64,000 nt of DNA from Minisyncoccia bacterium (GTDB lineage: Bacteria; Patescibacteriota; Minisyncoccia; Phycocordibacterales; SBAW01). Of this stretch, positions 1,945 to 56,410 are shown in pieces. The notes under the pieces are model-generated. The model saw nothing but the letters and a program-made list of their open reading frames with translations, made no database searches and was not told the DNA's origin. The position numbers and the translations under genes are program-made. The stretch is taken from NCBI GenBank assembly GCA_049997855.1, contig JBEKSG010000004.1, positions 2,607 to 66,606 on the forward strand, in the 5' to 3' direction. Each line of letters opens with the position of its first letter. Position 1 is the first letter of the stretch.

Positions 1945-2661
1945 TTGTACGATATACTAGAAGCAATGGATCCTCAGGTTCAGTCGTCATTTATACCCAA
2001 AAAGTCGCTCGACATTTCCACTTCGCGGAGTGAGGGCTCTTTTGGACTCCTGTTTCTCATCGCACTGCTGGTGTTTATTGCCTCGCTGGTCGCCGCGGGC
2101 GCCTCGTTTCTTTATACGGGATATTTAAACAATGCCATCGCATCTAAAGCTCAGTCGCTCGCGCTTGCCGAGGGAGCATTTGACCCGGGCACCATACAAG
2201 ACCTCGTGCGTCTCGACAGCAGGCTCAACCAATCAAAAACGCTTCTCGCCAACCACGTTGCCGTATCGGGCGTCTTTGCTCTGCTTGAGGCACAAACGCT
2301 CGCCAATGTGTCGTTTAGCAATTTTGAATTTGACCTCAACTCCGACGGCACCGCAAAAATAACCATGACCGGTACCGCGAACAGCTTTTCGACCGTGGCA
2401 CTGCAATCCGACCAGTTTGGCGGCAGTAAGTTGCTCAAAGATGTTGTCTTTTCAGGCATCACGGTCAATACCAACGGGAGCGTAGGATTTTCGGTAACGG
2501 CGACTGTCGACCCGTCGGTATTCTCATATGCCAACTCGCTTACCGCAAGCAACAGCACAAACGCACCGTCGCTCATGGTCGGCCTGCCTGCGCAGGCAGG
2601 CACGTCGTCTGTGCCTGTCGGTAGCACCACACCTGGCCTGCCTGCGCAGGCAGGACAATAA
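1945..2661 (+). CDS. pilN: PilN-like type IV pilus assembly protein with S/T/P-rich tail carrying two copies of the palindromic repeat
   Basis: N-terminal TM helix then periplasmic domain; position after pilM; C-terminus ..GLPAQAGTSSVPVGSTTPGLPAQAGQ encoded by two palindrome copies. Confidence 0.5.
   Translation: MYDILEAMDPQVQSSFIPKKSLDISTSRSEGSFGLLFLIALLVFIASLVAAGASFLYTGYLNNAIASKAQSLALAEGAFDPGTIQDLVRLDSRLNQSKTLLANHVAVSGVFALLEAQTLANVSFSNFEFDLNSDGTAKITMTGTANSFSTVALQSDQFGGSKLLKDVVFSGITVNTNGSVGFSVTATVDPSVFSYANSLTASNSTNAPSLMVGLPAQAGTSSVPVGSTTPGLPAQAGQ
2582..2601. repeat. Palindromic repeat copy 1 (GCCTGCCTGCGCAGGCAGGC), in frame in pilN-like tail, encodes GLPAQAG
   Basis: Perfect 20-bp palindrome read from sequence. 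Confidence 0.9.
2636..2654. repeat. Palindromic repeat copy 2 (GCCTGCCTGCGCAGGCAGG), 34 bp downstream of copy 1, encodes GLPAQAG, ends 5 nt before stop
   Basis: Read from sequence. Confidence 0.9.
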
Positions 2662-2662
2662 T

Positions 2663-3214
2663 ATGAGACTCTTCATGCCAACCATACTCGTCATTGCCGC
2701 CGTCGGCCTCTTTGTCGTGTACACCAACCCGACCTACCAAGCCACTCATACGCTCCAGGCGCAGGCAAGCGCGTACGACGACGCGCTCACCAAATCGCAA
2801 CAGCTTCGCGCCATCCGCGACCAGCTCTTGAGCAAGCGCAACACCTTTTCGGCCGACGATGTGCAAAAATTGCAAGAGGTGCTCCCCGACAATGTCGATA
2901 ACATCCGCTTTATCATCGACGTTAACAATATTGCCGCGCGGCACAATATCTCGCTCAGCGACGTACAACTCGGCACCATCGGCGGCACGGCACAAACAGA
3001 CCAAAGTGTAGCCGCCGCGTCGAGCGGGGGCGCCGTTGGCTCGGTTGATATTGGATTTACGATAAACGCCTCATACAGCGATATGCTCGCCTTTCTTGGG
3101 GACCTCGAACACAGCGTGCGTCTCATCGACGTCGAGAAGCTTAGTTTTACCGCACCCTCAAGCGGCACCACCACCAACTACACTTTCGTTGTCCGCACGT
3201 ATTGGCTCCATTAA
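2663..3214 (+). CDS. pilO: PilO-like type IV pilus assembly protein (start at ATG 2663; upstream part of listed ORF is read-through of the palindrome)
   Basis: N-terminal TM (MPTILVIAAVGLFVVY) plus coiled-coil/periplasmic domain; operon position. Confidence 0.5.
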   Translation: MRLFMPTILVIAAVGLFVVYTNPTYQATHTLQAQASAYDDALTKSQQLRAIRDQLLSKRNTFSADDVQKLQEVLPDNVDNIRFIIDVNNIAARHNISLSDVQLGTIGGTAQTDQSVAAASSGGAVGSVDIGFTINASYSDMLAFLGDLEHSVRLIDVEKLSFTAPSSGTTTNYTFVVRTYWLH

Positions 3215-3226
3215 CATGCTACCCAT

Positions 3227-3589
3227 ATGAATTTTTTGAAACAAAATAAAATAACCATAGGAGGGATCATCGCAGTTTTGCTCCTGGGATATATTTATAT
3301 TGTTTATTTTTCCGGCTCTTCCACGCCGGCGCTTACGTCGACCGACACCGACACCGCGCTCTCGCAAAACTTGCTCGTGACGCTTCAAAATCTGCAGACG
3401 ATCAAACTCGACAACAGCATCTTTTCGGACCCGGCGTTTATCTCGCTTACCGACTTTGGCGTAACCATCCCGCCGCAGGCGGTAGGCAACCCCGATCCGT
3501 TTTTGCCGCCGAGTGGCGCAGTTTCGGCAGGCAAAGCGGGGAACTCCAACATGCTCCCTGCGATACAATTACCAACTGGCGGGAATTAA
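3227..3589 (+). CDS. Small membrane-anchored pilus-associated protein (PilP-like position)
   Basis: N-terminal TM, Pro-rich C-terminus; between pilO-like and pilB. Confidence 0.3.
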   Translation: MNFLKQNKITIGGIIAVLLLGYIYIVYFSGSSTPALTSTDTDTALSQNLLVTLQNLQTIKLDNSIFSDPAFISLTDFGVTIPPQAVGNPDPFLPPSGAVSAGKAGNSNMLPAIQLPTGGN

Positions 3590-3595
3590 CGTGAT

Positions 3596-9067: not shown

Positions 9068-9934
9068 TTGACCATTTTTACCATATTTTTAGTGGGTGCG
9101 ACTTTGCTGGGTGTCATCGTCGGCAGTTTTTTAAACGCGCTCTCGTTCCGCTTTAACACGGGTGTGCCTTTTTTTAGCACGCGTGGCATGGGCGGGCGCT
9201 CGCGCTGTATGCAATGCGGGCATGCGCTCGGTGGCCTCGATTTGGTGCCCGTTTTTTCGTATATTTTTTTAGGAGGCAAGTGCCGCTACTGCGGCTCGCG
9301 CATCTCGGCGCAGTATCCGCTTGTGGAGATTGTGGCGGGAATGCTTGGCGCGGGAGTGTTTGTGAGAGTGTGGGATGCGATGCCTCCTCAAGGAGGCATC
9401 GCATCCGCTCTTGCATTTTTGTTTTGGTTTGTAATATGGATGACGCTTTTGTTTGTCGTCATCTATGACCTCAAACACATGATTATCCCGTGGAGCTGTT
9501 CGCTTGTGCTTGTTGCACTTGCGGTTGTTGGTATTATGTTCAACCTCGTAGGTAAGGGCACACTTATGCCGCTCACAGCGGCTCCAACATCAAACCTATG
9601 GGCGTTGCTCGCGGGGCCGCTTTTGGCACTGCCGTTATTTCTACTCTCTCTGGTATCGTGGGGCCGATGGATGGGGTGGGCAGACAGCGCACTTGAGCTA
9701 TCAATAGGAGCGTTGCTCGGTTTAAGCGCCGGTGCGACCGCGCTTAGCTTCGCCTTTTGGAGCGGCGCACTCATAGGCGTCATACTCATTGCACTCTCGC
9801 GTGTTTTTTCTCGGCTGCATTTTTTTAGGTATACAATAAAGAGCGAGATGCCGTTTGCTCCGTTTTTGGTGTTGGGAGCCGCTCTCGCTTATTTTTGTCA
9901 TGTCGACTTCTTTTCGTCGTTCACGCTCTTTTGA
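9068..9934 (+). CDS. pilD: Prepilin peptidase PilD (A24 family); TTG start 9068 or GTG near 9095
   Basis: CxxC..CxxC zinc motif (CMQCGHALGG..CRYCGSRISAQYPLVE), multiple TMs, catalytic Asp region. Confidence 0.85.
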   Translation: MTIFTIFLVGATLLGVIVGSFLNALSFRFNTGVPFFSTRGMGGRSRCMQCGHALGGLDLVPVFSYIFLGGKCRYCGSRISAQYPLVEIVAGMLGAGVFVRVWDAMPPQGGIASALAFLFWFVIWMTLLFVVIYDLKHMIIPWSCSLVLVALAVVGIMFNLVGKGTLMPLTAAPTSNLWALLAGPLLALPLFLLSLVSWGRWMGWADSALELSIGALLGLSAGATALSFAFWSGALIGVILIALSRVFSRLHFFRYTIKSEMPFAPFLVLGAALAYFCHVDFFSSFTLF

Positions 9935-10589
9935 TAAGCGGCCTGCCTGCGCAGGCAGGGGCTTTACCTTGCTCGAGCTTATGGTAACGATGGCTATTAT
10001 GGTCATCGTTACCAGCATCATGCTGTTTAACCAGGCCAAATTCGACAGTTCCACTATTTTGCGCTCGCTCGCGTACAGCGTGGCGCTCTCGGTCCGCCAA
10101 GCGCAGGTGTACGGCACCTCGGTCCTCGGCACCTCGACGCCCCAGGTTGCATGCAGCGGTTTTTATTCGGCGGGGGAGTGTTATGTGTCCGCCTACGGCG
10201 TGTACTTTAACAGCGCAAGTCCCGGGCAATACATCCTCTTTGCCGACCTCAACAACGACGGTCGGTACGAGACGGGAGAGGCTATAAAAGTATTTTCACT
10301 CAACACCGACTATGTAGTATCGGATTTTTGTGCGGCACAATCGGGTAGTCCAGTGCCTAGCAACCCTTTAGCGTGGTGTAAAAGTACTGGCACGATAACC
10401 CAGCTAAGTATTGTATTTAAAAGACCAAACCCAGATGCTTGTTTTTCAACCGATTTGAATTCCAGTGCTTGTGCGCCTGGAAGCACGCCGTTTTACTCAA
10501 GCGCTATGATTTATTTAACCAATCAAGGCGATCCTTCAAGTGTGCGGAGCGTGATGGTTACCTCAACAGGACTTATATCGGCACAATGA
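9900..10589 (+). CDS. Pseudopilin/minor pilin with 21-aa leader MSTSFRRSRSFDKRPACAGRG|FTLLELM; overlaps pilD 3' end
   Basis: GFTLLE cleavage motif; ATG 9900 in frame; palindromic repeat encodes PACAGR at -7..-2. Confidence 0.6.
   Translation: MSTSFRRSRSFDKRPACAGRGFTLLELMVTMAIMVIVTSIMLFNQAKFDSSTILRSLAYSVALSVRQAQVYGTSVLGTSTPQVACSGFYSAGECYVSAYGVYFNSASPGQYILFADLNNDGRYETGEAIKVFSLNTDYVVSDFCAAQSGSPVPSNPLAWCKSTGTITQLSIVFKRPNPDACFSTDLNSSACAPGSTPFYSSAMIYLTNQGDPSSVRSVMVTSTGLISAQ
9941..9959. repeat. Palindromic repeat copy 3 (GCCTGCCTGCGCAGGCAGG), in pseudopilin leader, encodes PACAGR
   Basis: Read from sequence. Confidence 0.9.
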
Positions 10590-11215
10590 AAATCTATTCG
10601 CACATATTTAAAACGCGCCTGCCTGCCGGCAGGCAGGGATTTACCCTTATCGAAATGCTCGTCTCGGTCGCACTGTTTTCGGTCGTGATGGTCATGGCGC
10701 TCGGCGCGTTGCTCTCGCTCTCCACAGCCGACAGGAAGGCGCAGGCGCTCAAGTCGTCGGTAGATAACCTTAACTTTGCGCTCGACTCTATGTCGCGCAC
10801 GATACGCACCGGCTACAACTATCATTGCGGTTCTTCTTCCGGCGGAGATTGTAAAGCCGGCAACAACACGTTTTACTTTACCGCCAACAATGGCGTGGTA
10901 ACCGCCTATCGGCTTGAGAGCCTCACGGTCGACTCCAACGCCGCGGCTATATGCGGGCAAACCATTGCGACACCCGGCTGTCTTGCCATTTCGGTCGGGG
11001 GAGGCGCATGGGCGTCCATCACGAGCCCCGACGTTATCATCAATGACTTGAGCGCCTCAAACAGCTACTCGTTCCATTTGTGGGGAACAACCACCGGGGA
11101 CAATATCCAGCCGATTGTGGTGATTACGCTCAGCGGCTACGCGCAGGTGAGTACCACACAACAGTCGGCCTTCCATTTGCAAACCACCGTGACGCAACGC
11201 ATTTATGATCAATAG
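10586..11215 (+). CDS. Pseudopilin/minor pilin with 18-aa leader MKIYSHIFKTRLPAGRQG|FTLIEM; ATGA overlap with previous gene
   Basis: GFTLIE motif; palindrome variant encodes LPAGRQ at -7..-2. Confidence 0.65.
   Translation: MKIYSHIFKTRLPAGRQGFTLIEMLVSVALFSVVMVMALGALLSLSTADRKAQALKSSVDNLNFALDSMSRTIRTGYNYHCGSSSGGDCKAGNNTFYFTANNGVVTAYRLESLTVDSNAAAICGQTIATPGCLAISVGGGAWASITSPDVIINDLSASNSYSFHLWGTTTGDNIQPIVVITLSGYAQVSTTQQSAFHLQTTVTQRIYDQ
10618..10637. repeat. Palindromic repeat copy 4, CCGG-centred variant (CCTGCCTGCCGGCAGGCAGG), in pseudopilin leader
   Basis: Perfect 20-bp palindrome read from sequence. Confidence 0.9.
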
Positions 11216-12339: not shown

Positions 12340-14370
<2,031 letters not shown>

Positions 14371-14397: not shown

Positions 14398-14718
14398 ATG
14401 ATTTCCAAAGAGGAGGTGGAACAATTGGCCGCTTTGGCACGGCTTGAGGTGACACCCAAAGAGATAGAGAGCTTGCAAAAAGACATCTCAAACATTCTCG
14501 GCTATGTCGGGCAAGTAGCGGCTGTCTCTGTCGACGGCAAAGAGCACGAGATACCTCTCGTGCGCAATGTGCTCCGCAGTGATGTGCCGCGCCTGCCTGC
14601 GCAGGCAGGCGAAGCGGGAGACACGATGGCTGGCAAAGAGGCACAGGTGATAGCGGCGTTCCCTAAACGCGAGGGCACTTTTAACGTCGTGCGCAAGATA
14701 ATCCAAAAAGATGAGTAG
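14398..14718 (+). CDS. gatC: Glutamyl/aspartyl-tRNA amidotransferase subunit C with in-frame palindrome insertion (LPAQAG)
   Basis: GatC-like N-terminus (EEVEQLAALARLEV); 8-nt overlap with gatA. Confidence 0.75.
   Translation: MISKEEVEQLAALARLEVTPKEIESLQKDISNILGYVGQVAAVSVDGKEHEIPLVRNVLRSDVPRLPAQAGEAGDTMAGKEAQVIAAFPKREGTFNVVRKIIQKDE
14590..14611. repeat. Palindromic repeat copy 5 (CGCCTGCCTGCGCAGGCAGGCG, 22-bp perfect palindrome) inside gatC
   Basis: Read from sequence. Confidence 0.9.
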
Positions 14719-17653: not shown

Positions 17654-17727
17654 GTCGGCGTAGCTCAGGCAGTTAGAGCATGGGACTCATAAACCCAAGG
17701 TCGAAGGTGCAAGTCCTTCCGCCGACA
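17654..17727 (+). tRNA. tRNA-Met (anticodon CAT; elongator or Ile2-type)
   Basis: Acceptor GTCGGCG/CGCCGAC, D-arm GCTCAG..GAGC, anticodon loop CTCATAA, perfect T-stem GAAGG/CCTTC. Confidence 0.7.
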
Positions 17728-17821
17728 CACAGTTGTGACGCCAGGAACTCGTTCCGTCAGGCGTCGAAAGTGCGAAATTCCGGTACCATACCGCTGAGGG
17801 TCGAATCCTAGTCTGCCAGCC

Positions 17822-18505
17822 ATGAAAATTATAAACAACCTCAGCATAACCGGTGCATATCGAAACAGAGTGACGCTCGTTGTCTATTATGGTATGCGTG
17901 TGTTAGTCCTCATTGGGGCGGCTCTATTTCTATTGCGGGGAAACTGGGAGTCGGCGGTAAGCACTCTCCTTATTTTCCTTCTGATGTTTGTTCCGTCTAT
18001 CCTTAAAGAGCGCTACCGGCTGTATCTGCCGTTTACTCTCGACCTAGGCATTGTTATTTTTATTTTTTCCACGCTCTTTTTAGGCGAAGTGGGGCGCTTT
18101 TACGATCGGATTCCGCTGTGGGATAAATTTTTACACTTTCAATCGGGACTTTTACTGGGCGCAACCGGCTACGTACTGCTGTATATCTTAAACGAACATA
18201 AGCACTTGAAACTCAACCTGAGCCCGCTGTTTGTATCAATTTTTGCGGTCGCATTTTCTCTCGCAATAGGCGCGGTGTGGGAGATGTTCGAGTTTGCGGG
18301 AGACGCATATTTTTCAGCTCATCTCGTCAATTACTCTCCTTGGCAGGCAAGCAATGCCGATACCATGTGGGACCTTATTGCAGACGGAGGAGGAGCATTG
18401 ATCGTCAGTATGGTGGGATATTTTTGGATGCATCAATATAAGCGCCTCCCTTTTACTCCTTGGATGCTCAAGATAATCAAGATCAAAAATAAGTTCAAGA
18501 AATAG
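17822..18505 (+). CDS. Integral membrane protein (hypothetical)
   Basis: Multiple hydrophobic helices; no catalytic motif recognised. Confidence 0.35.
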   Translation: MKIINNLSITGAYRNRVTLVVYYGMRVLVLIGAALFLLRGNWESAVSTLLIFLLMFVPSILKERYRLYLPFTLDLGIVIFIFSTLFLGEVGRFYDRIPLWDKFLHFQSGLLLGATGYVLLYILNEHKHLKLNLSPLFVSIFAVAFSLAIGAVWEMFEFAGDAYFSAHLVNYSPWQASNADTMWDLIADGGGALIVSMVGYFWMHQYKRLPFTPWMLKIIKIKNKFKK

Positions 18506-18606
18506 CAGTGGAAATGTCATATACATGGTTGGTCTGGCGGCCTTTCTCCGCCACAGCAAAAGTTTAAAAGCCTCTGGAAGTTATCGAGGACTTTTTCTTT
18601 TGCTTC

Positions 18607-19938
18607 CTACATTAGAGTAATTTTCTTATCATTGATTACGAGCTTGCCGCGCAGGTGCTCCAGTAGCTCGCGCTTTTCCTCCATGCTTCCTTCCTCAAGC
18701 AGGTACTTTGCATATTTCTTTATATCCATCGCCACCCCTGTGTCTTTCTCTTTTGAACCAAGCACTGTCTTGCGGAGCTTGTTGTAGCGGGCAATCTCTT
18801 TCTCAATAAGGTGGCGGGCGCCCAACTCGTCAATCTCGACTTGGTCGATGATTCCGCACAGCTGCTCTATGACACTGTCCTCACGGATGTAAGGATTCTT
18901 GCAATTGCGGTCTTTGCCGCCAGTGCAACTGTAGTAGGTGTACCAGCGGGAAGTGCCATCTTTGTTGACCTTCTGCTTGTCCAATCCGGTCACGCCGGAG
19001 CCGCACTTGCCGCATACCATGAGGCGCACAAAGGTAAACTCGCGGTCGCGCTTTCTTGGCTTGCTCTCCTCGATAATCTTTGCACGGACCGCTTGGAATA
19101 GTTCCTGTGAGATGAGAGGCTGATGCTTCCCAACATACCAGTTGCCGCTCTTACGCGGGTACTCATACACGCCGCAGTAAAAGGGATTCTTGAGCATCTC
19201 GTACAGCGTGCTTATGTTAAGCGTCTTGTCGTTGCGTGTCTTGAAGTTCATCTCATCCTTTAGCCAAAAATATACCCGCTTGCCGCTCCAGCGTTCCTTT
19301 GCCACTTTCTCGAATATCATCCTAACTACCGGCGCCCGTAGGGGATCGAGCAGTACTTCGCACTTGTGGTCTGAGCGTTTGTCGTTGAGATATCCAGTCG
19401 GCGCATACCCCGGCAAAAGGCCCATTTCTGCACGCGTTCGCAGCCCGCGCTTCACGTTTACGCTCTTGTTGTCATTCTCCAGCTTTGCCTGAGAGCACAG
19501 TATCATCAGCATGAACTTCTCGTTCGGATTGTTGGTAAACTTCTGCGAGTACGCGCGTATCTCCAAGAGCTTGCCTTGGTCGAATAGGTCCACCACCGCA
19601 CCAAGGTCTCCGGCATTGCGGCTCAGCCTGTCCGGTGCCCACGTCAGGATGCCGTTGAATTTTCCCGTTCGTATATCAGCGAGCAACTGCTGGTACACGG
19701 GTCGTTGCCCGGCCGCTTTTGCAGAATGCTTCTCCTGTCGCACTTCAACAACTTCGAGCCCATCCCGCTCTGCCACCTGCGTCATCTCCTTGATTTGCGA
19801 CCCTATGGAGAGAGCCTGATTCTCATCGTCCTCGGTGCTCTTGCGAGCGTAAAGGCAGTAGCGCACCTTTACTGCCTCCTTAATTTCCGGCCTCGCCCCT
19901 AGAGCTCCTGTTGTACCTTCAAAAACGCTTGTGTTCAT
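18607..19938 (-). CDS. Large serine recombinase (integrase)
   Basis: N-terminal resolvase catalytic domain (YARKSTEDDENQ..), recombinase domain, C-terminal zinc ribbon CGKCG..C..C, coiled-coil; 443 aa. Confidence 0.85.
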   Translation of the reverse strand: MNTSVFEGTTGALGARPEIKEAVKVRYCLYARKSTEDDENQALSIGSQIKEMTQVAERDGLEVVEVRQEKHSAKAAGQRPVYQQLLADIRTGKFNGILTWAPDRLSRNAGDLGAVVDLFDQGKLLEIRAYSQKFTNNPNEKFMLMILCSQAKLENDNKSVNVKRGLRTRAEMGLLPGYAPTGYLNDKRSDHKCEVLLDPLRAPVVRMIFEKVAKERWSGKRVYFWLKDEMNFKTRNDKTLNISTLYEMLKNPFYCGVYEYPRKSGNWYVGKHQPLISQELFQAVRAKIIEESKPRKRDREFTFVRLMVCGKCGSGVTGLDKQKVNKDGTSRWYTYYSCTGGKDRNCKNPYIREDSVIEQLCGIIDQVEIDELGARHLIEKEIARYNKLRKTVLGSKEKDTGVAMDIKKYAKYLLEEGSMEEKRELLEHLRGKLVINDKKITLM

Positions 19939-19947
19939 ATGCCTTGT

Positions 19948-19975
19948 AGTTACTTGCTAATCTGCAAGTACAAGG
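19948..19975. promoter_or_regulatory. Inverted repeat TTACTTGC-n6-GCAAGTAC in divergent promoter region between recombinase and helicase genes
   Basis: Dyad read from sequence, 10 nt upstream of recombinase start codon. Confidence 0.3.
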
Positions 19976-20034
19976 AATGACGCAACCCCTGCTGTGAGTC
20001 TAGACCAGCTCCGGCACCCCTAAGTTGGTAAGAA

Positions 20035-23000
20035 ATGCTTCTAAAAGAGGCTCAAAGTGCTATTATTTGCCTAATAATACGAAATTTCATGAATTCCGAT
20101 CTTACATTCATAACCAACGAGGATGGTCAGAACCTTAAGGAGAGGTTCGAAGTGTTAATTAAAGACACTAAGTTCTTTGACTGTCTGGTCGGGTACTTTT
20201 ATGCCAGCGGCTTCCACGCCGTATATAAGTCTCTAGAAAAGACGGAGAAAATCAGGATTCTTATTGGCATCAGCACTGATCCGCATACCTACGATTTGAT
20301 GCAGCAAGCGCAACCGGTAGCGCAGACTGCCTTGCAGTTCTCGAGTGCAGAGACGAAAGAAAAGCTTGGTGCAGTTGTCGAGCAGGAGATGGAATCTTCC
20401 GAGGACAACGCAATAACCGAGAATGGCGTTTCAAAATTCATTGAGTGGATACAGAGCGGTAAATTGGAGATTCGTGCATATCCATCGGAGAAAATCCATG
20501 CAAAGGTTTACATCATGACGTTTGGCGAGGGCGATCGCGACAAGGGTCGCGTTATCACCGGTTCAAGCAACTTTACGCAAGCGGGTTTCGTGGACAATCT
20601 AGAGTTCAATGTCGAACTCAAAAACAGTGCCGATTATGATTTTGCTTTGAGCAAATTCAACGAACTATGGAAAGATTCAGTGGATGTCAGTCAAAAATAT
20701 GTTGACACCATACAAACGAAAACGTGGCTCAGCGATAGCATTACCCCGTATGAACTGTATCTGAAATTCCTCTATGAATATTTCAAGGATGATCTAGGTA
20801 CCCACGATGAAGTGTTCCTTAAGTATCTTCCGATTGAATTCAAGAAACTTGAGTACCAAGAACAAGCCGTTCTTAATGCGAAGAAGATTCTTGATGAATA
20901 TGGCGGTGTATTTATTTCCGACGTCGTCGGTCTAGGTAAGACGTATATTTCGGCGATGCTCGGCGGCCAACTCGTGAATGAAGGCAGGATTCTCGTCATC
21001 GCTCCGCCGGTCCTGCTGGATAAGACCAATCCGGGGTCATGGCCGAACGTGTTTAGGGATTTCAACGTGCCGGCCACGTTCCGGTCTATTGGCGAACTCG
21101 ACAAGATCATCAAGGACGGTGTCGAACAGTATTCGCATCTGTTTGTTGATGAGGCACACCGCTTCCGTACCGAGAATAATGCGACGTATGAAAAGTTGGC
21201 CGAGATTTGTCGTGGGAAGAAGGTCGTCCTTGTAACCGCGACTCCGTACAACAACTCCCCAAGGGATATTTTGAGTCAGATCAAGCTTTTCCAGAAGGCT
21301 CGAAAGAGTACAGTCCCTAATTTGCCGGATCTCGAGCAATTCTTCGCCGGTCTCGAACGCAAGCTTAAAAATCTCGACCGCCAGAAAGATTATGACGAAT
21401 ACATCGCGGCCGTCAAAGAAAACGCGAAGGAAATCCGAGAGAAAGTACTCAAGTATTTGATGGTGCGTCGTACTCGCACGGAGATCACCAAATATTTTGC
21501 GGAAGATCTGGCCGCTCAGAAGCTGAAGTTCCCGGACATAGAAAAACCGGAAGCGACTTTCTATGAATTGAACGACGATGAGGATGTGATATTTACCAAG
21601 ACCATTGAGCTGCTGGCTAAGAACTTCAAGTACGCGCGGTACACCCCGATTCTTTACTACAAGGGTGAGGTCAGTCAGCCGGAGGAATTGGCCCAAAAGA
21701 ACATGGGCAAGTTTATGAAAATACTGCTCATCAAGCGTCTCGAAAGCAGCTTTCACGCATTCCAAAACTCACTCGGTCGCTTTATACATTCTTACGAGTC
21801 ATTTATATCGGAGATGGATAACGGCAACGTATATGTAAGCAAAAAGTACACGAATAAAATCTTTGAATTTCTTGCGGATGACAATGACGACGCTGTCGAA
21901 GCACTGATTAGCCAGGGTAAGGCTGATAGGTTACCCAGCAAGGATTTCCGAGCAGAGTTTAGAAAGGACTTGCAAAGCGATCTCGATATCTTGAAAGAGA
22001 TTCATCAGATGTGGATGAGCATCAAGCGCGACCCGAAGCTTTTGGCATTTATAGAAAAACTTTCCACCAACCCGATCCTTAAAAAGAGTAAGCTCATCAT
22101 ATTTACTGAATCAAAGGAGACGGCTGAATACCTCGCCAAGAATATCGATGCCAAGTTTCCGAATGAGACGCTCTGCTTTACTGGTGCCTCCAGCATGCTG
22201 GTCCGGGAACAGGTTATTGAGAATTTTGATGCCAAGGCCAGATTCCCGAAAGACGATTACCGAATTCTCGTCTGCACTGAAATATTGGCGGAAGGTGTGA
22301 ACTTACATCGTTCCAATGTCGTTATTAATTACGATATTCCTTGGAATCCGACCCGCATGATGCAACGGGTCGGTCGCGTCAACCGAGTCGATACCAAATT
22401 CGATAAGGTCTATACATTCAATTTCTTTCCTACTAAACAAGCCAACGACCAAATCAAGCTTCGTGAGGCGGCCGAGGCGAAAATCAGCGCATTCTTGTCC
22501 TTGCTTGGCGGCGATGCACATTTGCTCACCGAAAACGAGCCAATTGGATCCCACGAGCTGTTCAACCGCCTCACCTCAAAAGAAATTATTACCGGCGAGA
22601 ATGAGGACGAGGAGAGCGAACTCAAATATCTTCGTGTCATCAAGGATATTCGAGATAAAGACCCGGATACTTTTGAAAAAGTTAAGCGTTTACCCAAGAA
22701 GGCGCGAACAGCGAGAACGAACAAAGAGCATGTCGGGCAACTGATCTCATATTTTCGTCGTGGAAAGATACAAAAGTTCTTCGCAGCCACAGGCACTCGT
22801 TCTCAAGAATTGGATTTCATTTCCGCAGCTAAAATGCTTGAGTCTGCAAAAGACACGAAGCGGCAGAAAGTTGATAAGGATTTCTACTCCCTGCTTGAGG
22901 AAAACAAGAAGGCATTTATCTTTGCGACAACAGAAGAAATGCCGGAAGTAAAAATGCGCGGCGGGCGCGACAGCGCGACGCAAATCTTGAGGATTCTGAA

Positions 23001-23283
23001 GGCGACCATGAACGACCACCGACAATTTACCGAAGAACAGGAGCTTTATCTCAAAAAGGTCGTCACCCAGCTCGAGGAAGGCGGTTTGCCTAAACAAACC
23101 ACGAAGGTAACACTGCAGGCTCTTAATGATGAAATCAAAAAAAACATTAATCCGCTAAAGATTCTCTCGGTCCTGCAGAGTCACATCTCAGTGCGGCTTC
23201 TTGGAGGTCATTTTGCCGAAACTACCACCGACCACTTCGGTAAGCGAGAGGTTATTCTGTCAGAGTATTTGACGAACTTATGA
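20035..23283 (+). CDS. PLD-family nuclease / SNF2-type SF2 helicase fusion protein (probable start ATG 20089)
   Basis: N-terminal HxK..GSxN phospholipase-D motif (HAKVYIM..GSSNFT); Walker A GLGKT, DEAH box (FVDEAH), helicase C-terminal motif VI (QRVGRVNR). Confidence 0.8.
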   Translation: MLLKEAQSAIICLIIRNFMNSDLTFITNEDGQNLKERFEVLIKDTKFFDCLVGYFYASGFHAVYKSLEKTEKIRILIGISTDPHTYDLMQQAQPVAQTALQFSSAETKEKLGAVVEQEMESSEDNAITENGVSKFIEWIQSGKLEIRAYPSEKIHAKVYIMTFGEGDRDKGRVITGSSNFTQAGFVDNLEFNVELKNSADYDFALSKFNELWKDSVDVSQKYVDTIQTKTWLSDSITPYELYLKFLYEYFKDDLGTHDEVFLKYLPIEFKKLEYQEQAVLNAKKILDEYGGVFISDVVGLGKTYISAMLGGQLVNEGRILVIAPPVLLDKTNPGSWPNVFRDFNVPATFRSIGELDKIIKDGVEQYSHLFVDEAHRFRTENNATYEKLAEICRGKKVVLVTATPYNNSPRDILSQIKLFQKARKSTVPNLPDLEQFFAGLERKLKNLDRQKDYDEYIAAVKENAKEIREKVLKYLMVRRTRTEITKYFAEDLAAQKLKFPDIEKPEATFYELNDDEDVIFTKTIELLAKNFKYARYTPILYYKGEVSQPEELAQKNMGKFMKILLIKRLESSFHAFQNSLGRFIHSYESFISEMDNGNVYVSKKYTNKIFEFLADDNDDAVEALISQGKADRLPSKDFRAEFRKDLQSDLDILKEIHQMWMSIKRDPKLLAFIEKLSTNPILKKSKLIIFTESKETAEYLAKNIDAKFPNETLCFTGASSMLVREQVIENFDAKARFPKDDYRILVCTEILAEGVNLHRSNVVINYDIPWNPTRMMQRVGRVNRVDTKFDKVYTFNFFPTKQANDQIKLREAAEAKISAFLSLLGGDAHLLTENEPIGSHELFNRLTSKEIITGENEDEESELKYLRVIKDIRDKDPDTFEKVKRLPKKARTARTNKEHVGQLISYFRRGKIQKFFAATGTRSQELDFISAAKMLESAKDTKRQKVDKDFYSLLEENKKAFIFATTEEMPEVKMRGGRDSATQILRILKATMNDHRQFTEEQELYLKKVVTQLEEGGLPKQTTKVTLQALNDEIKKNINPLKILSVLQSHISVRLLGGHFAETTTDHFGKREVILSEYLTNL

Positions 23284-23284
23284 T

Positions 23285-27312: not shown

Positions 27313-27316
27313 ATTT

Positions 27317-27448
27317 ATGGACGAGGAACTTTTTGAACTGGCAAAAGAGAACGACCTAACGCTTGATGAGGCGCAGGAGGTTCAGGATCTTGCTGATGAG
27401 ACAGGGTTAGATCTAGAAGAAGCCTTAGAGCTCTGGCAGGAGCAGTAG
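27317..27448 (+). CDS. 43-aa highly acidic small protein, copy 1 (MDEELFELAKENDLTLDEAQEVQDLADETGLDLEEALELWQEQ)
   Basis: Not in ORF track (<60 aa); a second copy at 61931 differs mainly at synonymous sites, implying a selected protein. Confidence 0.5.
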   Translation: MDEELFELAKENDLTLDEAQEVQDLADETGLDLEEALELWQEQ

Positions 27449-27495
27449 TCTGCGGTAATAAAGACAATTTCCTCGAAAAGTGTTATAATATACCT

Positions 27496-31251: not shown

Positions 31252-31275
31252 TTGAGATAGCGGCTTCTTAAGTCT

Positions 31276-31632
31276 ATGACTGACCAACCACAAGCAACCG
31301 ACTATTTGGGGAAATCTGTTTTAGTTAAAATAGACCGACCTCTTCATTCAAAACATCCGAAGCATGGTTTTATATATGAGTTGAATTACGGATTTATTCC
31401 CGACACATGTTCCCCCGACGGTGAGGAACTCGACGCGTATGTGCTCAGTGTTACAGAGCCACTGGAAACTTTTACGGGCAAATGCATCGCAGTTATTCAT
31501 CGAACGAACGATGACGATGACAAATTGGTTGTCATTCCGGAAGATATAAAAAATATGACCGATGAGGATATCCGCGCCGCAACGAATTTTCAAGAACAGT
31601 TTTTTAAATCTGAAATAATACGACGCGCATAA
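31276..31632 (+). CDS. Inorganic pyrophosphatase-like protein (short)
   Basis: NYGFIPDT..DGEELDAYVL closely resembles family I PPase active-site segment (YGFIPQT..DGDPLDVLV). Confidence 0.45.
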   Translation: MTDQPQATDYLGKSVLVKIDRPLHSKHPKHGFIYELNYGFIPDTCSPDGEELDAYVLSVTEPLETFTGKCIAVIHRTNDDDDKLVVIPEDIKNMTDEDIRAATNFQEQFFKSEIIRRA

Positions 31633-31996
31633 ACTTTTCGTCCCACAGTTTCTCGTTGGCTCGATTCATCTCCTTAAAACTTCCCAAAACTCCAAAAGAG
31701 CGTCCTGTAGACAACCCCCTTCGCAAGCCTCTATATCTAAGCTAAGGTGTTGGACGGTACCAAATTAGGCGGTATCATGGTTCTGTACAACTGAATAGGG
31801 CTAAGGACCTACCCCGGCGAGTTTTTCTCTCCGGCAAGGTCGAAAATCGTAAGTCACAGAAAACCCGTTATCAGGGCGTGACTTACGTTATCAGGGGAAA
31901 CTCTGATAGGGCCGCAAGGCCTCCTGGTAGCGGGCTTTGTGTTTTCCAAAGTCCATACTACCGGAGGCGATTATTAGTTTTTAGTAACCGCACTAT

Positions 31997-32899
31997 ATGG
32001 ACATACAAGAGGTCGCGAAGAAAAAGATGTTCTATAAACGCTGGTGGTTTTGGGTCGGTATTGTTATCGTCCTGCTCTTAATAATAAGTATCGCCGCAAG
32101 CTCCGGCTCTCCAACCGCCAGCAGCTCTGACATAACGAGCGCGTGCAATGGGTTCTCTCCCGACGCCACCCAGCCGATTGATTACAAGGAACTCAGCAAG
32201 AATCCCGACTCTTTCAAATCCGACCGATCTACGTTTACCGGCCAGATTCTGCAAATTCAAGAATCAGGCGGCGTTGGGTATATGCGCCTCGCGGTCGACA
32301 GAGACCAGTTCGGCTGGAATTTCAGCGACATCATCTTGGTTGATTACCAAGGTCACACCGACGCCGTCCAGAACGACGTCATGACTGTCGGCGGCACTAT
32401 GGAGGGCAGCCAAACTTACACCTCACAAGCGAACTTTCAAATCACTCTGCCTCTCATGTACGCTTGCTCAATTACAGAAGCCTCTTCTACTGCAAACGCA
32501 GCATCGACCCAAACCAAAACTGCCGCCGCCCCCACTCCGTCTGCTCCCCAGCAGACTCACAGCACCCAAAGCAGCGCGACGGTAAACAATAGCGGCACCG
32601 TCACTTCGCCACCCGCGCCGCCGGCCTCGTGGCACACAGTTACAACCTTCAGCGGCCAGACGCAGAAGAATACACCTCCATTTACCATCAAGGGATCGCA
32701 GTGGCGCATCACCTGGCAAGAGACGGGCGACGGCTACTTTGGCGCGGATACCCAAAGCCCTGATGGCAGCAACTATTGTTCCATCGCAAATCTCGCCGGT
32801 CCAGGTTCCGACTCTACTTACTGCTACACGCCGGGCACGTATTACATTTCGGTCAACACGGCTAATTCTTGGACGATGACCGTGGAGGACTACTACTAA
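31997..32899 (+). CDS. Membrane-anchored/secreted protein with Ser/Thr/Ala-rich linker (hypothetical)
   Basis: N-terminal TM helix, low-complexity linker, C-terminal beta-rich domain. Confidence 0.35.
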   Translation: MDIQEVAKKKMFYKRWWFWVGIVIVLLLIISIAASSGSPTASSSDITSACNGFSPDATQPIDYKELSKNPDSFKSDRSTFTGQILQIQESGGVGYMRLAVDRDQFGWNFSDIILVDYQGHTDAVQNDVMTVGGTMEGSQTYTSQANFQITLPLMYACSITEASSTANAASTQTKTAAAPTPSAPQQTHSTQSSATVNNSGTVTSPPAPPASWHTVTTFSGQTQKNTPPFTIKGSQWRITWQETGDGYFGADTQSPDGSNYCSIANLAGPGSDSTYCYTPGTYYISVNTANSWTMTVEDYY

Positions 32900-47179: not shown

Positions 47180-48901
47180 ATGGCTGTACGACCCAAACGA
47201 TCACCTGCAAAAAAAACATCTCCTAAATACATTTTTGTCGTCGGCGGGGTCATGAGCGGCATCGGCAAGGGCATCGCCTCGTCCTCCATCGGGCGCATTC
47301 TCAAATCGAAAGGTTTTAAGGTAACGGCGATAAAAATCGACCCGTATATCAACGTGGATGCCGGCACGATGAATCCCACCGAGCATGGCGAGGTGTTTGT
47401 GCTCAACGACGGCTACGAGACCGACCAGGACATGGGCAACTACGAACGCTTTTTGGACGACACATTGCCCTCTATCAACTACATGACGACCGGCCGCGTG
47501 TATCAGGAGATTATCCGCCGCGAGCGCAACTTGGAGTTTGGCGGCAAAAACGTCGAGGTGGTGCCGCACGTGCCGCTCGAGGTATTGCGCCGCATCAGCG
47601 AGGCGCAAAAAAACGCCAAAGCCGAGGTAACACTGGTTGAGGTGGGCGGCACCATCGGCGAATATCAAAACATTATTTTTTTGGAAGCGGCTCGCATGCA
47701 GAAGCAAAAATGCCCCGGCGATGTGGCTGTGGTCATGCTCTCGTATGTGCCGATACCGCACAACATCGGTGAGATGAAGACCAAGCCCACGCAGTATGCC
47801 AGCCGCGAGCTCAACTCCACCGGCCTCCAAGCCGATATTATTTTGGCGCGGGCAACTGTGCCTCTCGATGCCAAGCGCAAAGAAAAGATTGCAACCTTTT
47901 GCAACATAAGCCCCGAGCGTGTTATTTCGGCGCCAGATGTTGAGAGTATTTATGATGTCCCGGCCAATTACGAAAAAGACGGCCTCGGCGATATGTTGAC
48001 CGAGGTGCTCGGTCTGCGGAAGCGCAAAACCGATCTCTCGGAGTGGAACACGTTTGCGCGCAAAGTAAAAAACGGCAACAAAGAGCTCTCCATCGCGATT
48101 GTCGGCAAATATTTTAACTCGGGCGATTATGTGCTCTCCGATGTATACATCTCGGTCATTGAGGCGCTCAAGACTGCCGGGTATCACCACAATTCAAAAA
48201 TCAAACTCGACTACATCGACTCTGAAGATTTTGAAAACCTGCCTGCCGGCAGGCAAGTGGCAAAGCGTTCCCTCGAGGAGCTCGGTGCGTTTGACGGCAT
48301 CGTGGTGCCGGGCGGCTTTGGTTCGCGCGGCGTCGAGGGCATCGTAGCGGCTATTACATACGCGCGCGAGCATAAGATACCGTACCTCGGCCTCTGCTAC
48401 GGCATGCAATGGCTCACGATAGAGTATGCACGCAATAAAGCGGGGCTCGCGGGCGCCAACACCTCCGAGGTCGACAAAAAAACGCCGCATCCGGTCATCG
48501 ACATCATCCCCGACCAAAAAGAAAAGATGCTCAACAAAAACTACGGCGGCACGATGCGCTTGGGCAGCTATCCGTGTGTGCTCAAAGAGGGGAGCGTTGC
48601 ATGCGAAGCCTACGTGTCCTTTGGAGCCTTGGCGAAGAAGGATGGCGTTAAAAAGATAAGCGAGCGGCATCGCCATCGCTATGAAGTAAACCCCGAGTAT
48701 ATCAAGCGGCTTGAGGAGGCGGGGCTCGTGTTTTCGGGCCGTTCTCCCGACGGTGTCTTGATGGAGATAGCCGAGTTGCCAAAAGATGTGCACCCGTTTT
48801 TTGTCGGCACGCAGTTTCATCCCGAGTTTCTCTCCAGGCCGCTCTCGCCGCACCCTCTATTTTCGGCGTTCGTTAAAGCCGCTCGCGAAAAGTCAAAATA
48901 A
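47180..48901 (+). CDS. pyrG: CTP synthase PyrG (with in-frame palindrome insertion ENLPAGRQVAK)
   Basis: N-terminal synthetase domain and C-terminal glutamine amidotransferase (GLCYGMQ, catalytic Cys/His). Confidence 0.95.
   Translation: MAVRPKRSPAKKTSPKYIFVVGGVMSGIGKGIASSSIGRILKSKGFKVTAIKIDPYINVDAGTMNPTEHGEVFVLNDGYETDQDMGNYERFLDDTLPSINYMTTGRVYQEIIRRERNLEFGGKNVEVVPHVPLEVLRRISEAQKNAKAEVTLVEVGGTIGEYQNIIFLEAARMQKQKCPGDVAVVMLSYVPIPHNIGEMKTKPTQYASRELNSTGLQADIILARATVPLDAKRKEKIATFCNISPERVISAPDVESIYDVPANYEKDGLGDMLTEVLGLRKRKTDLSEWNTFARKVKNGNKELSIAIVGKYFNSGDYVLSDVYISVIEALKTAGYHHNSKIKLDYIDSEDFENLPAGRQVAKRSLEELGAFDGIVVPGGFGSRGVEGIVAAITYAREHKIPYLGLCYGMQWLTIEYARNKAGLAGANTSEVDKKTPHPVIDIIPDQKEKMLNKNYGGTMRLGSYPCVLKEGSVACEAYVSFGALAKKDGVKKISERHRHRYEVNPEYIKRLEEAGLVFSGRSPDGVLMEIAELPKDVHPFFVGTQFHPEFLSRPLSPHPLFSAFVKAAREKSK
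48238..48257. repeat. Palindromic repeat copy 6, CCGG-centred variant with one mismatch (CCTGCCTGCCGGCAGGCAAG) inside pyrG
   Basis: Read from sequence. Confidence 0.85.
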
Positions 48902-54176: not shown

Positions 54177-54512
54177 ATGACGTCACAACACACCGGAGAG
54201 GATAAACTTGCTCCTTTGCGCAAAGGACTCCTTGAACTCGCCGTGCTCAAGGTTATTTCGGGTCGTGCGGTATACGCGGCCGACATTTTAGAGCGTCTCC
54301 ATGACACGCCGCTTAAAACCCAGGAGGGGACACTGTACCCGCTCCTCTCCAAGTTGCGCCGCGAGGGGCTGGTCACCTACGAGTGGGAAGAGTCGGCAGC
54401 GGGGCCGCCGCGCAAGTATTACTCGCTCACCAAAGGTGGCGAGGACACACTCAAAGAACTCTCTCATTATTTAAAAACATTACAAGCAAGCATTAACAAT
54501 TTAGCCAAATAA
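54177..54512 (+). CDS. PadR-family transcriptional regulator
   Basis: Winged-HTH motif LLELAVLKVIS..Y..DILERL..GTLYPLLSKLRREGLV. Confidence 0.8.
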   Translation: MTSQHTGEDKLAPLRKGLLELAVLKVISGRAVYAADILERLHDTPLKTQEGTLYPLLSKLRREGLVTYEWEESAAGPPRKYYSLTKGGEDTLKELSHYLKTLQASINNLAK

Positions 54513-54513
54513 C

Positions 54514-55398
54514 ATGAACAAGGTAGTGACAATACATTTAGATGGGATAGCGTACAGCCTCGAAGAGGGTGCTTACGATGCGCTTCGCGCGTACCTCGAT
54601 GCCGCCGAGGTCACACTCTCGCAAAATCCCGACAAGGACGAAATAATTAGAGACCTAGAGCAAGCTATCGGGACAAAACTGAGCGCGTATTTAAACGCAC
54701 ACAAAAATGTCGTAATCCAGTCTGATATAGACGCCGTGCTTGCCGAGATGGGCCCTGTCGCGGCCGAAGGAGATACGTATCCCGAAGGCGATGCTGAAAA
54801 AACAGCCAACGCAGCGCCCGCGCCCAAACAGCTCTACCGCCTTAAACAAAATGGCGTGCTATTTGGCGTGTGCGCCGGCCTCGCCGCATACTTCGGCGTC
54901 GATGTTGCGCTCGTGCGTTTTATTTTTATTATCCTCACCTTTATTACCGGCGGCGGCTTTGCGATTGTATATGTGCTTGCGGTGATATTTATCCCCGAAG
55001 CACACACGTCGGCAGAGCAGGCCGAAGCCTATGGTACGGCGCCGCTTACCGCGCAAGATTTAGTCAATCGCGCCAAAGAGGGCTTTAATCAATTTGCAAA
55101 TTCCGAGCAATGGCACACATGGAAACAGCAGATGCGCCAACAACGAAAGCAGTGGAGACAGGAGCGCCGGGCATACCGGCATATGCATCGCGGCTATACA
55201 TGGCACGACCATCCGCGGGGTTTTTTAACCGAACTCAATGAGTTTATCTGGAGCATGTTTAGCCTCGTTGTTTTGGTGTTCTTTATTTGGATTCTCTACC
55301 ATCATATATCCTTGGTACATCAATTTTTAGACAACCTTAAAACGTTGTGGGATCGCTTTATTTACGCGCTTGCGCAAGTCATAAGCAATCACCGTTAA
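54514..55398 (+). CDS. PspC-domain membrane protein
   Basis: PspC motif LYRLKQNGVLFGVCAGLAAYFGVDVALVRFIFII; directly downstream of PadR (common pairing). Confidence 0.7.
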   Translation: MNKVVTIHLDGIAYSLEEGAYDALRAYLDAAEVTLSQNPDKDEIIRDLEQAIGTKLSAYLNAHKNVVIQSDIDAVLAEMGPVAAEGDTYPEGDAEKTANAAPAPKQLYRLKQNGVLFGVCAGLAAYFGVDVALVRFIFIILTFITGGGFAIVYVLAVIFIPEAHTSAEQAEAYGTAPLTAQDLVNRAKEGFNQFANSEQWHTWKQQMRQQRKQWRQERRAYRHMHRGYTWHDHPRGFLTELNEFIWSMFSLVVLVFFIWILYHHISLVHQFLDNLKTLWDRFIYALAQVISNHR

Positions 55399-55438
55399 CA
55401 ATACTTGTTTCTTCGTGAAGATGCGTTAGTATCAAGCC

Positions 55439-56410
55439 ATGCAAAAAGGCAAAGTTACCGGCGTGTTATTGATTGTCGTTATCGTCCTTATCGGTGTGTT
55501 TTTGTGGTACAACCGCAGTGCCTCGTGGTTTGTGCCGTTTCTCGGTTCAAATAAGACATCAACCGAGCAGCAAGAGACCGCAAAAGTAACCTACGCGTGC
55601 GATGCGAACAAAACGATAGTTGCCACGTATTATTCCGGCCCATCGCTCCCCGTGCCTGTCGGCTCCACCATGCCGCCCGCGCCAAACGGCAGCGTGGCGC
55701 TCACGCTCGGCGATGGCCGCGCGATGACCTTGCCGCAAACAATATCCGGCTCGGGCATCCGCTATGCCAATGCCGACGAATCACTGGTGTTTTGGAGCAA
55801 AGGCAACACCGCGTTTATCACCGAAGGCCTGCCTGCGCAGGCAGGTGTCGCCACCAGCTCGGTACAGACGTTTGCCAACTGTGTTGTGTTGAGCGACATA
55901 AGCGGCCAGGATAGTTGGAACTTTTTTGCCTCCTCGACGCTCGGCTACTCGATTAAATATCCGCAAGGGTACACCATGACCGCGCCCTACGACTATCAAG
56001 AGCTCGGTCCCGGCAAAGATATTGCGGGTGTTAAATTTACTATCGACCCTGCTATTGCCACAGGCACCAATCTTTCGCGCGACAGCTATGTGAGCGTCGA
56101 GCAATTGCCAAACGACGCAGCCGACTGCACAGCCGGTCTCTTTTTAGACGATCAACACATAAGCACCAGCACGCTTACCGACAACGGCGTCACCTACTCG
56201 GTGGCGGTGAGCAACGGCGCGGGCGCAGGCAATCTCTACAGCGAAACAGTGTATGCCATACCGGGCTCAAGCGCGTGTACCGCGGTGCGGTACTTTATTC
56301 ACTCGTCAGAGATAGGCAACTATCCGCCGGGCATGGTGGTGGCGTTCGATAAACAAACACTGCTCAATCAGTTTGACGCCATCCGCCGCTCGCTCGTACT
56401 TGCAAGGTAA
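55439..56410 (+). CDS. Membrane-anchored MliC-domain protein with C-terminal extra domain; palindrome-encoded LPAQAG linker
   Basis: YACDANKTIVATYY..LTLGDGRAMTLPQTISGSGIRYANADESLVFWSKGNTAFI matches MliC lysozyme-inhibitor fold. Confidence 0.5.
   Translation: MQKGKVTGVLLIVVIVLIGVFLWYNRSASWFVPFLGSNKTSTEQQETAKVTYACDANKTIVATYYSGPSLPVPVGSTMPPAPNGSVALTLGDGRAMTLPQTISGSGIRYANADESLVFWSKGNTAFITEGLPAQAGVATSSVQTFANCVVLSDISGQDSWNFFASSTLGYSIKYPQGYTMTAPYDYQELGPGKDIAGVKFTIDPAIATGTNLSRDSYVSVEQLPNDAADCTAGLFLDDQHISTSTLTDNGVTYSVAVSNGAGAGNLYSETVYAIPGSSACTAVRYFIHSSEIGNYPPGMVVAFDKQTLLNQFDAIRRSLVLAR
55828..55845. repeat. Palindromic repeat copy 7 (CCTGCCTGCGCAGGCAGG) in MliC-domain protein, encodes GLPAQAG
   Basis: Read from sequence. 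Confidence 0.9.

Follow-up and report, generated by a model that had tools for sequence, protein, structure and literature searches.

Frame-preserving short palindromes in a Minisyncoccia genome and their link to a small GIY-YIG nuclease gene at tRNA loci

Two described systems come closest to the repeat considered here. Repetitive extragenic palindromic (REP) sequences have a GTAG head, are imperfect, 20-40 bp long, extragenic and species-specific, and their partner is a Y1 HUH transposase, the REP-associated tyrosine transposase (RAYT). Rickettsia palindromic elements are ~100-150 bp long, confined to Rickettsia and without a known dedicated enzyme; they lie in frame in protein genes, including housekeeping genes, where they are tolerated as extra peptide. 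We analyze a family of perfect palindromes of 18-20 bp that has seven copies in a 64-kb stretch of the genome of a Minisyncoccia bacterium (64,000 nucleotides of contig JBEKSG010000004.1, assembly GCA_049997855.1; hereafter the window). The same palindrome occurs in many phyla and in viruses, and it adjoins a gene for a small GIY-YIG nuclease. Prokaryotic Slx1-like GIY-YIG proteins are minimal stand-alone domains (Dunin-Horkawicz 2006, PMC1564403). On balance we favor the interpretation that the copies in the window are solo and young, and belong to a family of very short, palindromic mobile repeats whose home is a tRNA-lodged mini-element with a GIY-YIG gene of ~80 amino acids. The pairing is best read as a REP/RAYT-like system in which a GIY-YIG protein is the partner.

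Palindrome copies in the window and in its relatives

The window contains five exact copies of an 18-mer (CCTGCCTGCGCAGGCAGG), one exact 20-mer (CCTGCCTGCCGGCAGGCAGG) and one 20-mer with a single mismatch (..GGCAAG). As a preliminary description of this DNA had stated, all seven lie in coding sequence and are translated without interruption. ORF stands for open reading frame.

2583..2600: copy 1, solo 18 bp, in the C-terminal tail of a PilN-like gene (ORF 1945-2661), read as LPAQAG
2637..2654: copy 2, solo 18 bp, one codon ahead of the PilN-like stop, read as LPAQAG
9942..9959: copy 3, solo 18 bp, in the leader of prepilin A (gene 9900-10589), read as PACAGR, immediately before the G/FTLLEL processing motif
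10618..10637: copy 4, solo 20 bp with a CCGG centre, in the leader of prepilin B (gene 10586-11215), read as LPAGRQ
14592..14609: copy 5, solo 18 bp, in gatC (14398-14718), read as LPAQAG
48238..48257: copy 6, solo 20 bp with one mismatch, in pyrG (47180-48901), 21 extra nucleotides read as LPAGRQV
55828..55845: copy 7, solo 18 bp, in a gene for an MliC-domain protein (55439-56410), read as LPAQAG

The enrichment over shuffled sequence is confirmed: the expected number of exact 18-mers is 0 (100 shuffles), neither form of the 20-mer appears in the shuffles, and the 9-nt arm occurs 14 times vs 0.46 expected. The sole arm in the window without a full palindrome partner is at 41368. Re-translation gives the codon phases described before, with an open frame in 7/7 copies: four are read as LPAQAG and two as LPAGRQ, and one gives PACAGR. 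Pfam matches agree that the hosts are unrelated (a PilN-like protein, two N_methyl prepilins, GatC, CTP synthase and an MliC-domain protein). The two copies in the PilN-like gene are spaced by 36 nt and not by 34 as first reported. It is also correct that none of the seven copies in the window is intergenic, but this placement carries no information because the window is ~92.5% coding and the probability that 7/7 copies fall in coding sequence is ~0.58. The copies are mildly non-random in position, with 5/7 inside 12 kb (P ~0.03), and we found no excess of decayed copies in the window.

Together with ~18 kb of flanking sequence from the 175-kb contig Ga0427918_0000167 (JGI 3300037843), ~82 kb could be read around the copies, which gives a density of ~1 per 12 kb (7 in ~82 kb). 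An independent assembly (Logan contigs of run SRR12951267) reproduces 5/7 copies, those at 2583, 2637, 9942, 10618 and 14592. Other perfect palindromes, each arm being 8 nt or longer, are also frequent (38 in the window vs ~6 in shuffles), and many of them are intragenic. They include 14119-14141, 57903-57927, 63292-63322 and a 34-bp palindrome at 9373-9406 in the prepilin peptidase gene (PilD; 9068-9934). The latter coincides with ~8 residues that are extra compared with relatives, and it looks like a local inverted duplication with a sequence unrelated to the family of CCTGCCTGCGCAGGCAGG and CCTGCCTGCCGGCAGGCAGG.

Alignment of the host genes shows that the window copies are insertions that close relatives do not have (loci and contigs outside the window carry our identifiers, L plus a number). 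Exactly 6-7 residues are inserted in the window and are missing in these relatives, a point that the preliminary description had asked about. The pilus locus of the relatives with an 85% identical PilC (L124, L125) is free of the palindrome throughout, and the relatives L121-L123 have none of the window's copies.

In the PilN-like gene, copy 2 is an insertion of exactly 18 bp, and its excision gives ..STTPGQ and a stop, which can be aligned to the C-terminus of the relative's protein. The PilN-like protein of L124 ends ~24 residues earlier, without copy 1, which is seen in Logan contig L307. Copy 3 is absent from L124 and L125 and present in Logan contig L128. In prepilin B, where relatives have MKK(R)GFTLIEM, the ancestral ATG is now ATT in the window, and the frame is restored by a new ATG, which overlaps the stop codon upstream (19+20 = 39 extra nucleotides). 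Subtraction of exactly 18 bp from gatC leaves DVPREAGDTM, equal in length to DKPYGEGGTM of L124. The MliC-domain protein has 323 amino acids vs 317 in the L121 orthologue, and the two differ by exactly those 18 bp. For PyrG, 39 of the 40 closest homologues (73-87% identity) do not have the seven residues LPAGRQV, and comparison with solved CTP synthases places the insert in a variable loop. The window DNA reads GAAAAC[CTGCCTGCCGGCAGGCAAGTG]GCAAAGCGT, compared with GAAAACGGCAAGCGG; the 21 extra nucleotides would fit an insert of 20 bp together with a single compensating base. The frame is thereby kept everywhere, since five copies are frame-neutral 18-mers and both 20-mers come with a compensating change.

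The copies are near-perfect and absent from relatives, so they stem from a burst that was recent. Those that survived lie where additional residues cost little: in prepilin leaders that are cleaved off, in a C-terminal tail, and in loops of GatC, PyrG and the MliC-domain protein. The pyrG codon is also occupied in another lineage (P0004), where L123 4560-4600 has a decayed 21-nt insert, CCGGCCGGCGGCGGGCAGGCG. This insert is identical at 14/21 nucleotides without gaps, and at ~16/20 to the canonical 20-mer with one gap. P0004 is more distant and is not the window's sister, and lineages that branch between the two have no pyrG insert; the shared codon is either a hotspot or the site of an old insertion that was later lost precisely.

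The start of prepilin A is called differently in the two assemblies. The JGI call lies after the palindrome (L127 13424-14032), so that the N_methyl leader is lost, and the Logan call is at 9900 (L128 5208-5897). The palindrome insert appears to mislead gene-start prediction in this gene.

Distribution of the palindrome and its GIY-YIG partner gene

A scan with one genome per species gives at least 120 palindrome loci among genomes, and Patescibacteria make up about a third of those listed. The other carriers include Bacteroidota, Omnitrophota, Planctomycetota, Acidobacteriota, delta- and gammaproteobacterial metagenome-assembled genomes (MAGs), and others. Cultured isolates with the palindrome belong to Winogradskyella, Flagellimonas, Robertkochia, Longitalea, Flavivirga and Algoriphagus. 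In viral contigs there are 76 stretches with the palindrome vs 2, 3 and 11 with matched control palindromes (arms swapped, (CCGT)2C, and a permuted arm, respectively). The controls fold equally well or better, so stability is no explanation and the viral excess is specific to the sequence.

The family has the arms CCTGCCTGC/GCAGGCAGG and a centre of 0-2 nt, and the window copies match it. At 193 non-redundant sites the arms are invariant and the centre is CG (116 sites), absent (34), a single base (40) or another dinucleotide (3); CG thus accounts for 116/119 of the 2-nt centres. The flanks show only a preference for a purine before and a pyrimidine after the palindrome, and a search of the flanks at palindrome sites gave no target motif. 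No Rfam family covers the palindrome at gathering thresholds in the window and 18 palindrome loci.

The 20-mer CCTGCCTGCCGGCAGGCAGG is the canonical form and the 18-mer is its frame-preserving variant. Outside the window, 8/11 of the 18-mers are in ORFs, and the 20-mers are divided between genes (19/69) and intergenic DNA (50/69), as frame selection predicts. Both this division and the insertions relative to orthologues bear out the earlier suggestion of a short selfish repeat that survives only where it can be read through.

To find genes that accompany the palindrome, ORFs of at least 45 amino acids within 900 bp were clustered all-against-all for 196 palindrome loci. The sole recurrent neighbor is an ORF of ~80 amino acids with a GIY-YIG domain; the six loci where the clustering placed it beside the palindrome come from five phyla and a virus. 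An earlier clustering of ORFs of at least 90 amino acids over whole loci found no shared gene. The nuclease proteins have 77-90 amino acids and a sole match to PF01541, the GIY-YIG catalytic domain. Among solved structures, they are nearest to SLX1 and to two UPF0213 proteins, 1zg2 and 1ywl.

We then selected 80 metagenome loci by similarity to the GIY-YIG protein alone, with a three-sequence alignment as query, as an independent test of the association. The palindrome (at most 2 mismatches) is near the GIY-YIG ORF in 56 of these 80 loci (70%); it is up to 120 bp upstream in 47, mostly with a gap of 10-46 nt, and up to 150 bp downstream in 14. There are almost no copies in the rest of the 299 kb around the 80 ORFs. 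Three more loci, found through database proteins, have the same arrangement. The canonical 20-mer spans almost the entire protein tree, across clades that are 40-55% identical, and a few nuclease clades have other palindromes or inverted repeats around the ORF. These results show a tight and specific linkage between the palindrome and nucleases of this family. Distant GIY-YIG homologues in cultured phages (~40% identity) have no palindrome, which indicates that the link is specific to the subfamily. Close homologues (65-77% identity) are found in Patescibacteria, Bacteroidota (including Algoriphagus) and Thermodesulfovibrionia/Nitrospirae, all within the wider range of the palindrome, which implies horizontal spread. 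Among the 196 loci selected by palindrome, 7 have the GIY-YIG gene (5 within 160 bp), so ~97% of the copies are solo.

The home loci are at tRNA genes and take two forms. Form 1 consists of the native leader with a tRNA 5' fragment that contains the palindrome, usually in the D-loop, followed by the ORF and an intact tRNA. Form 2 has an intact tRNA, then the ORF, then a tRNA 3' fragment whose T-loop or variable region contains the palindrome. The mini-element thus duplicates part of the tRNA, and the redundant fragment bears the palindrome. The intact tRNA copy serves as a built-in (paralogous) empty site, and comparison at 34/34 such sites gives zero shift, with neither a target-site duplication nor a deletion. 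By this alignment, insertion of the palindrome is shown to be precise and free of duplication. In several pseudo-fragments a decayed palindrome lies beside a perfect one (L231, L270, L290, L240, L276, L308, L115), which indicates repeated insertion. Palindromes occur on both sides of the cassette in L233, L273, L270, L239, L276, L277 and L015, and in one subfamily the ORF lies between inverted repeats of ~20 bp (L243, L256, L298). Other palindrome types occur as well: ACCTACCTCAGGTAGGT is beside the canonical palindrome in an Algoriphagus isolate (L115 3150-3650), and CCCGCCCG...CGGGCGGG and GCCCGCCTGC..GGCGGGC are at equivalent positions (among L253, L272, L275; L265, L276). Solo copies are 4-5x enriched near tRNA genes.

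Several home loci have further features. The ORF in form 1 often stops at tRNA U8-A9-G10 (TAG), as in L223, L229, L232, L234, L237, L251, L266, L291 and others, and its final residues are then encoded by the acceptor stem of the downstream intact tRNA. In a Bdellovibrionales MAG (L015 2940-3460), the GIY-YIG gene is split by a ~170-bp segment with the inverted repeats GGGGACTGTTTTCAA...TTGAAAACAGTCCC; the gene has half a palindrome on its upstream side and an extended one of 28 bp on its downstream side. A GIY-YIG/tRNA-Leu mini-element lies beside divergent parA-parB genes in three Patescibacteria-like loci (L308 4093-6306, L309 8042-10240, L310 192-2390), a neighborhood that is probably near the replication origin. 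A tRNA-Met on a phage contig (L176 2239-2330) has the 20-mer in its variable loop and is still called as a tRNA by ARAGORN, with a long extra arm. In a related phage contig (L133 8560-8640), 11 nt beside the palindrome are deleted and the T-arm is destroyed. Degenerate short direct repeats of low complexity surround the palindrome in L005, L008, L051, L076, L088, L099, L129, L148, L161 and L175, and the same 8-14-mer is often on both sides, such as TCTCGTCTCTCGCT in L148. Hairpin-induced slippage could have produced these direct repeats.

The window has further features. A PhdYeFM/ParE toxin-antitoxin pair (1395-1917) lies between the PilM and PilN-like genes of the pilus operon, and the relative has PemK toxins elsewhere in the locus. 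A low-GC (40-45%) island at ~17654-32000 adjoins a tRNA-Met and includes genes for a large serine recombinase (18607-19938, minus strand), a SNF2/PLD-nuclease helicase (20035-23283) and an Eco57I/MmeI-type methyltransferase (23285-26965), as well as DUF7768, DUF2130 and a UDG-family protein, and it has the appearance of an integrated defence/restriction island. At its edge the LOOT RNA family (Rfam RF03000) is matched over its full length (31806-31922, plus strand), with 68.9 bits vs a gathering score of 46.4.

Proposed mechanism and rival explanations

We infer that the nuclease, which has no DNA-binding domain and falls in a structure-specific clade, acts on the hairpin or cruciform of the palindrome and mobilizes the palindrome in trans. 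A possible route would be that the 20-nt hairpin is cut out of one strand and ligated into a nick elsewhere ('peel-and-paste'), in analogy to REP/RAYT and IS200/IS605, although the chemistry would differ. Scar-free insertions exactly like those seen would result if the hairpin strand were released and then ligated into a nick. In a genome that is ~92% coding, only in-frame insertions at tolerant positions would survive, either of 18 bp or of 20 bp with a compensating change. A bolder form of this proposal, which we put forward tentatively and would not bet on, is a new class of minimal mobile DNA. In it, a 20-nt hairpin would be copied or moved by a bare Slx1-like GIY-YIG nuclease of ~80 residues through junction nicking and host ligation; the gene would split and rebuild tRNA genes, the pair would be exchanged across phyla and phages, and solo bursts would add 6-7 residues to essential proteins.

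Several observations weigh against nuclease-driven mobility. By tblastn and profile search, this family's GIY-YIG gene was not found in the window or its ~18 kb flanks; the same searches in relatives gave only a divergent copy in a serine-recombinase island, without the palindrome (L122). The 18-mer is never directly beside a GIY-YIG gene, the nearest being 422 bp off (L082). In ~45 kb around three more GIY-YIG genes there is no distant solo copy, so the gene alone does not mean many solo copies. Hairpin excision and ligation are conjecture. Finally, the palindrome beside the nuclease gene could serve target immunity or guard against deletion, and not mobility.

A rival explanation that we consider unlikely is one in which the palindrome is mobile or recurrent independently of the GIY-YIG gene, through another trans-acting enzyme or host replication and repair, and the mini-elements are neutral structured landing DNA. 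It would account for the ~97% of copies that are far from any GIY-YIG gene and for the 82 kb around the window copies without such a gene, and the surplus of unrelated perfect palindromes in the window (38 vs ~6, such as 9373-9406 in PilD) suggests that a general palindrome-generating process operates in this genome. It is hard to reconcile with exactly this sequence within ~150 bp of the gene in 70% of GIY-YIG loci, across clades only 40-55% identical, with GIY-YIG as the only recurrent neighbor among 196 palindrome loci, and with neutral DNA elsewhere in the same loci that gathers no copies. Improbable in our view is a model in which the copies are footprints. Here a palindrome-bounded GIY-YIG cassette would insert and then be lost, either by recombination between the palindromes on its two sides or by excision, leaving one palindrome with the 0-2 nt centre as the rejoining point, like a solo long terminal repeat or a transposon excision scar. 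Invariant arms with a variable centre, the absent target-site duplication, the cassettes with palindromes on both sides and the subfamily with its ORF inside ~20-bp inverted repeats (L243, L256, L298) all fit such a model. Most cassettes, however, have a single palindrome, which is inside the tRNA fragment and not at the cassette boundary. A ~300-bp cassette as intermediate would be lethal in the essential single-copy genes pyrG and gatC, and five identical 18-mers in the window argue for a copied 18-mer and not for five independent imprecise rejoinings.

The preliminary description had also offered a DNA uptake sequence for the type IV pilus/competence machinery and a binding site for a dimeric regulator or nucleoid protein, to which a partition protein may be added. 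Perfect dyad symmetry fits a dimeric binding protein and 5/7 copies are within 12 kb that include the pilus locus (P ~0.03), but a functional host site is very improbable. Copies are absent from relatives whose proteins are 85-89% identical and whose pilus genes are the same, and the same 20-mer is found in unrelated phyla, phages and pseudo-tRNA fragments. Known uptake sequences are far denser than the ~1 copy per 12 kb found here, and the positions, in leader peptides and in loops of enzymes, have the look of insertions that are tolerated and not of conserved sites. Both the uptake and the regulator proposals therefore fall. The third, a homing or target site, comes closest of those offered. 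To a sequencing or assembly artefact, from adapters or chimera junctions, we give almost no credence. Short perfect palindromes can arise at junctions and the data are mostly metagenome assemblies; yet two independent assemblies agree, the reading frame is kept in 7/7 copies, a decayed copy is at the same pyrG codon in another lineage, and cultured isolates also have the palindrome in their genomes. We regard the host-site and artefact readings as effectively excluded.

A parS-like partition site, a recombinase core site, a CRISPR repeat and a terminator were also considered and rejected. So was a spliced intervening sequence, since the frame is strictly preserved, which speaks against removal from the RNA.

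If the link between palindrome and nuclease is causal, this would be the smallest repeat-plus-enzyme mobile system described, and the first case of a stand-alone GIY-YIG (Slx1-like) domain in the role that RAYT has for REP. It would explain the function of the widespread and uncharacterised UPF0213 proteins, would give an origin for one class of annotated pseudo-tRNA fragments and of gene starts called wrongly, and would account for some small protein indels in gene-dense Patescibacteria. Since phyla and phages share the same 20-mer, it can mark horizontal exchange. A tiny nuclease whose substrate is a defined 20-bp hairpin and whose insertions leave no scar would also be of interest to tool builders.

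Comparison with known systems

A literature search that included the literal sequences and peptides found no description of the palindrome or of a GIY-YIG/palindrome/tRNA-fragment element. Like the present family, REP/RAYT systems have short GC-rich palindromic repeats, many of them solo, a single-copy enzyme gene flanked by the repeat, hairpins that far outnumber the gene, and no target-site duplication. The corresponding values here are ~97% solo repeats and a gene that adjoins repeats in 56/80 loci. The palindromes described here differ from REP in being perfect, 18-20 bp long, shared across phyla and also present in coding sequence; GTAG is at the 5' flank in only a handful of ~200 sites. 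The partner is an Slx1-like GIY-YIG domain in place of a Y1 HUH transposase, and unlike in REP/RAYT the home locus is nested in a tRNA gene. No Y1 HUH transposase is a recurrent neighbor at the 196 palindrome loci, where GIY-YIG is the only one, although no dedicated Y1_Tnp profile search was run.

The Rickettsia palindromic element, proposed earlier as the best-known analogue, is apt in that both are inserted in frame and read through, and not in length, since the present copies have 18-20 bp and not ~100-150 bp. They also occur in many phyla and have a candidate nuclease. A transposable element of the miniature inverted-repeat type (MITE), with terminal inverted repeats and the target-site duplication of a DDE transposase, was rejected, as target-site duplication is absent in 34/34 cases and the gatC and MliC inserts are exactly 18 bp.

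Cyanobacterial small dispersed repeats (SDR elements) and HIP1, reportedly described by Elhai and colleagues in 2008, are ~8-30 bp long and mobile-looking, with hairpin potential. Like the present family, they can be nested in other repeats or in RNA genes, and now and then in coding sequence. The cyanobacterial repeats have unrelated sequences and are lineage-restricted, whereas precise insertion without duplication and the association with tRNA fragments belong to the present family alone. We know of no protein associated with the cyanobacterial repeats. The GC clusters or double-hairpin elements of fungal mitochondria are ~30-60 bp long, variable in sequence and organellar. They too are GC-rich palindromic insertions that lie in frame in protein genes and in RNA genes, and to our knowledge no linked nuclease gene has been defined for them.

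Free-standing GIY-YIG homing genes (phage T4 Seg, with SegB among tRNA genes) are likewise small, selfish, located at tRNA genes and horizontally spread. Homing enzymes have a C-terminal DNA-binding domain and long asymmetric sites, which they cut in alleles without the gene, whereas the present nuclease is a bare catalytic domain and not a two-domain enzyme. It is further set apart by the duplication of a tRNA fragment and by a fixed 20-bp palindrome that also spreads alone; the ORF is present at the home loci and absent in the window (64 kb and flanks). IS200/IS605 elements share the use of hairpins as the recognised structure, the lack of target duplication and minimal non-autonomous derivatives. 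They need a Y1 HUH TnpA, sub-terminal hairpins at both ends and a target tetranucleotide, none of which was found here; the present copies can form hairpins and are not duplicating, with neither a Y1 TnpA neighbor nor a fixed 4-5 nt 5' target.

The family thus falls outside the defining features of MITEs, uptake sequences, classical GIY-YIG homing endonucleases and IS200/IS605. It is closest in logic to REP/RAYT and closest in coding-sequence behavior to Rickettsia palindromic elements, and it also departs from the defining features of both.

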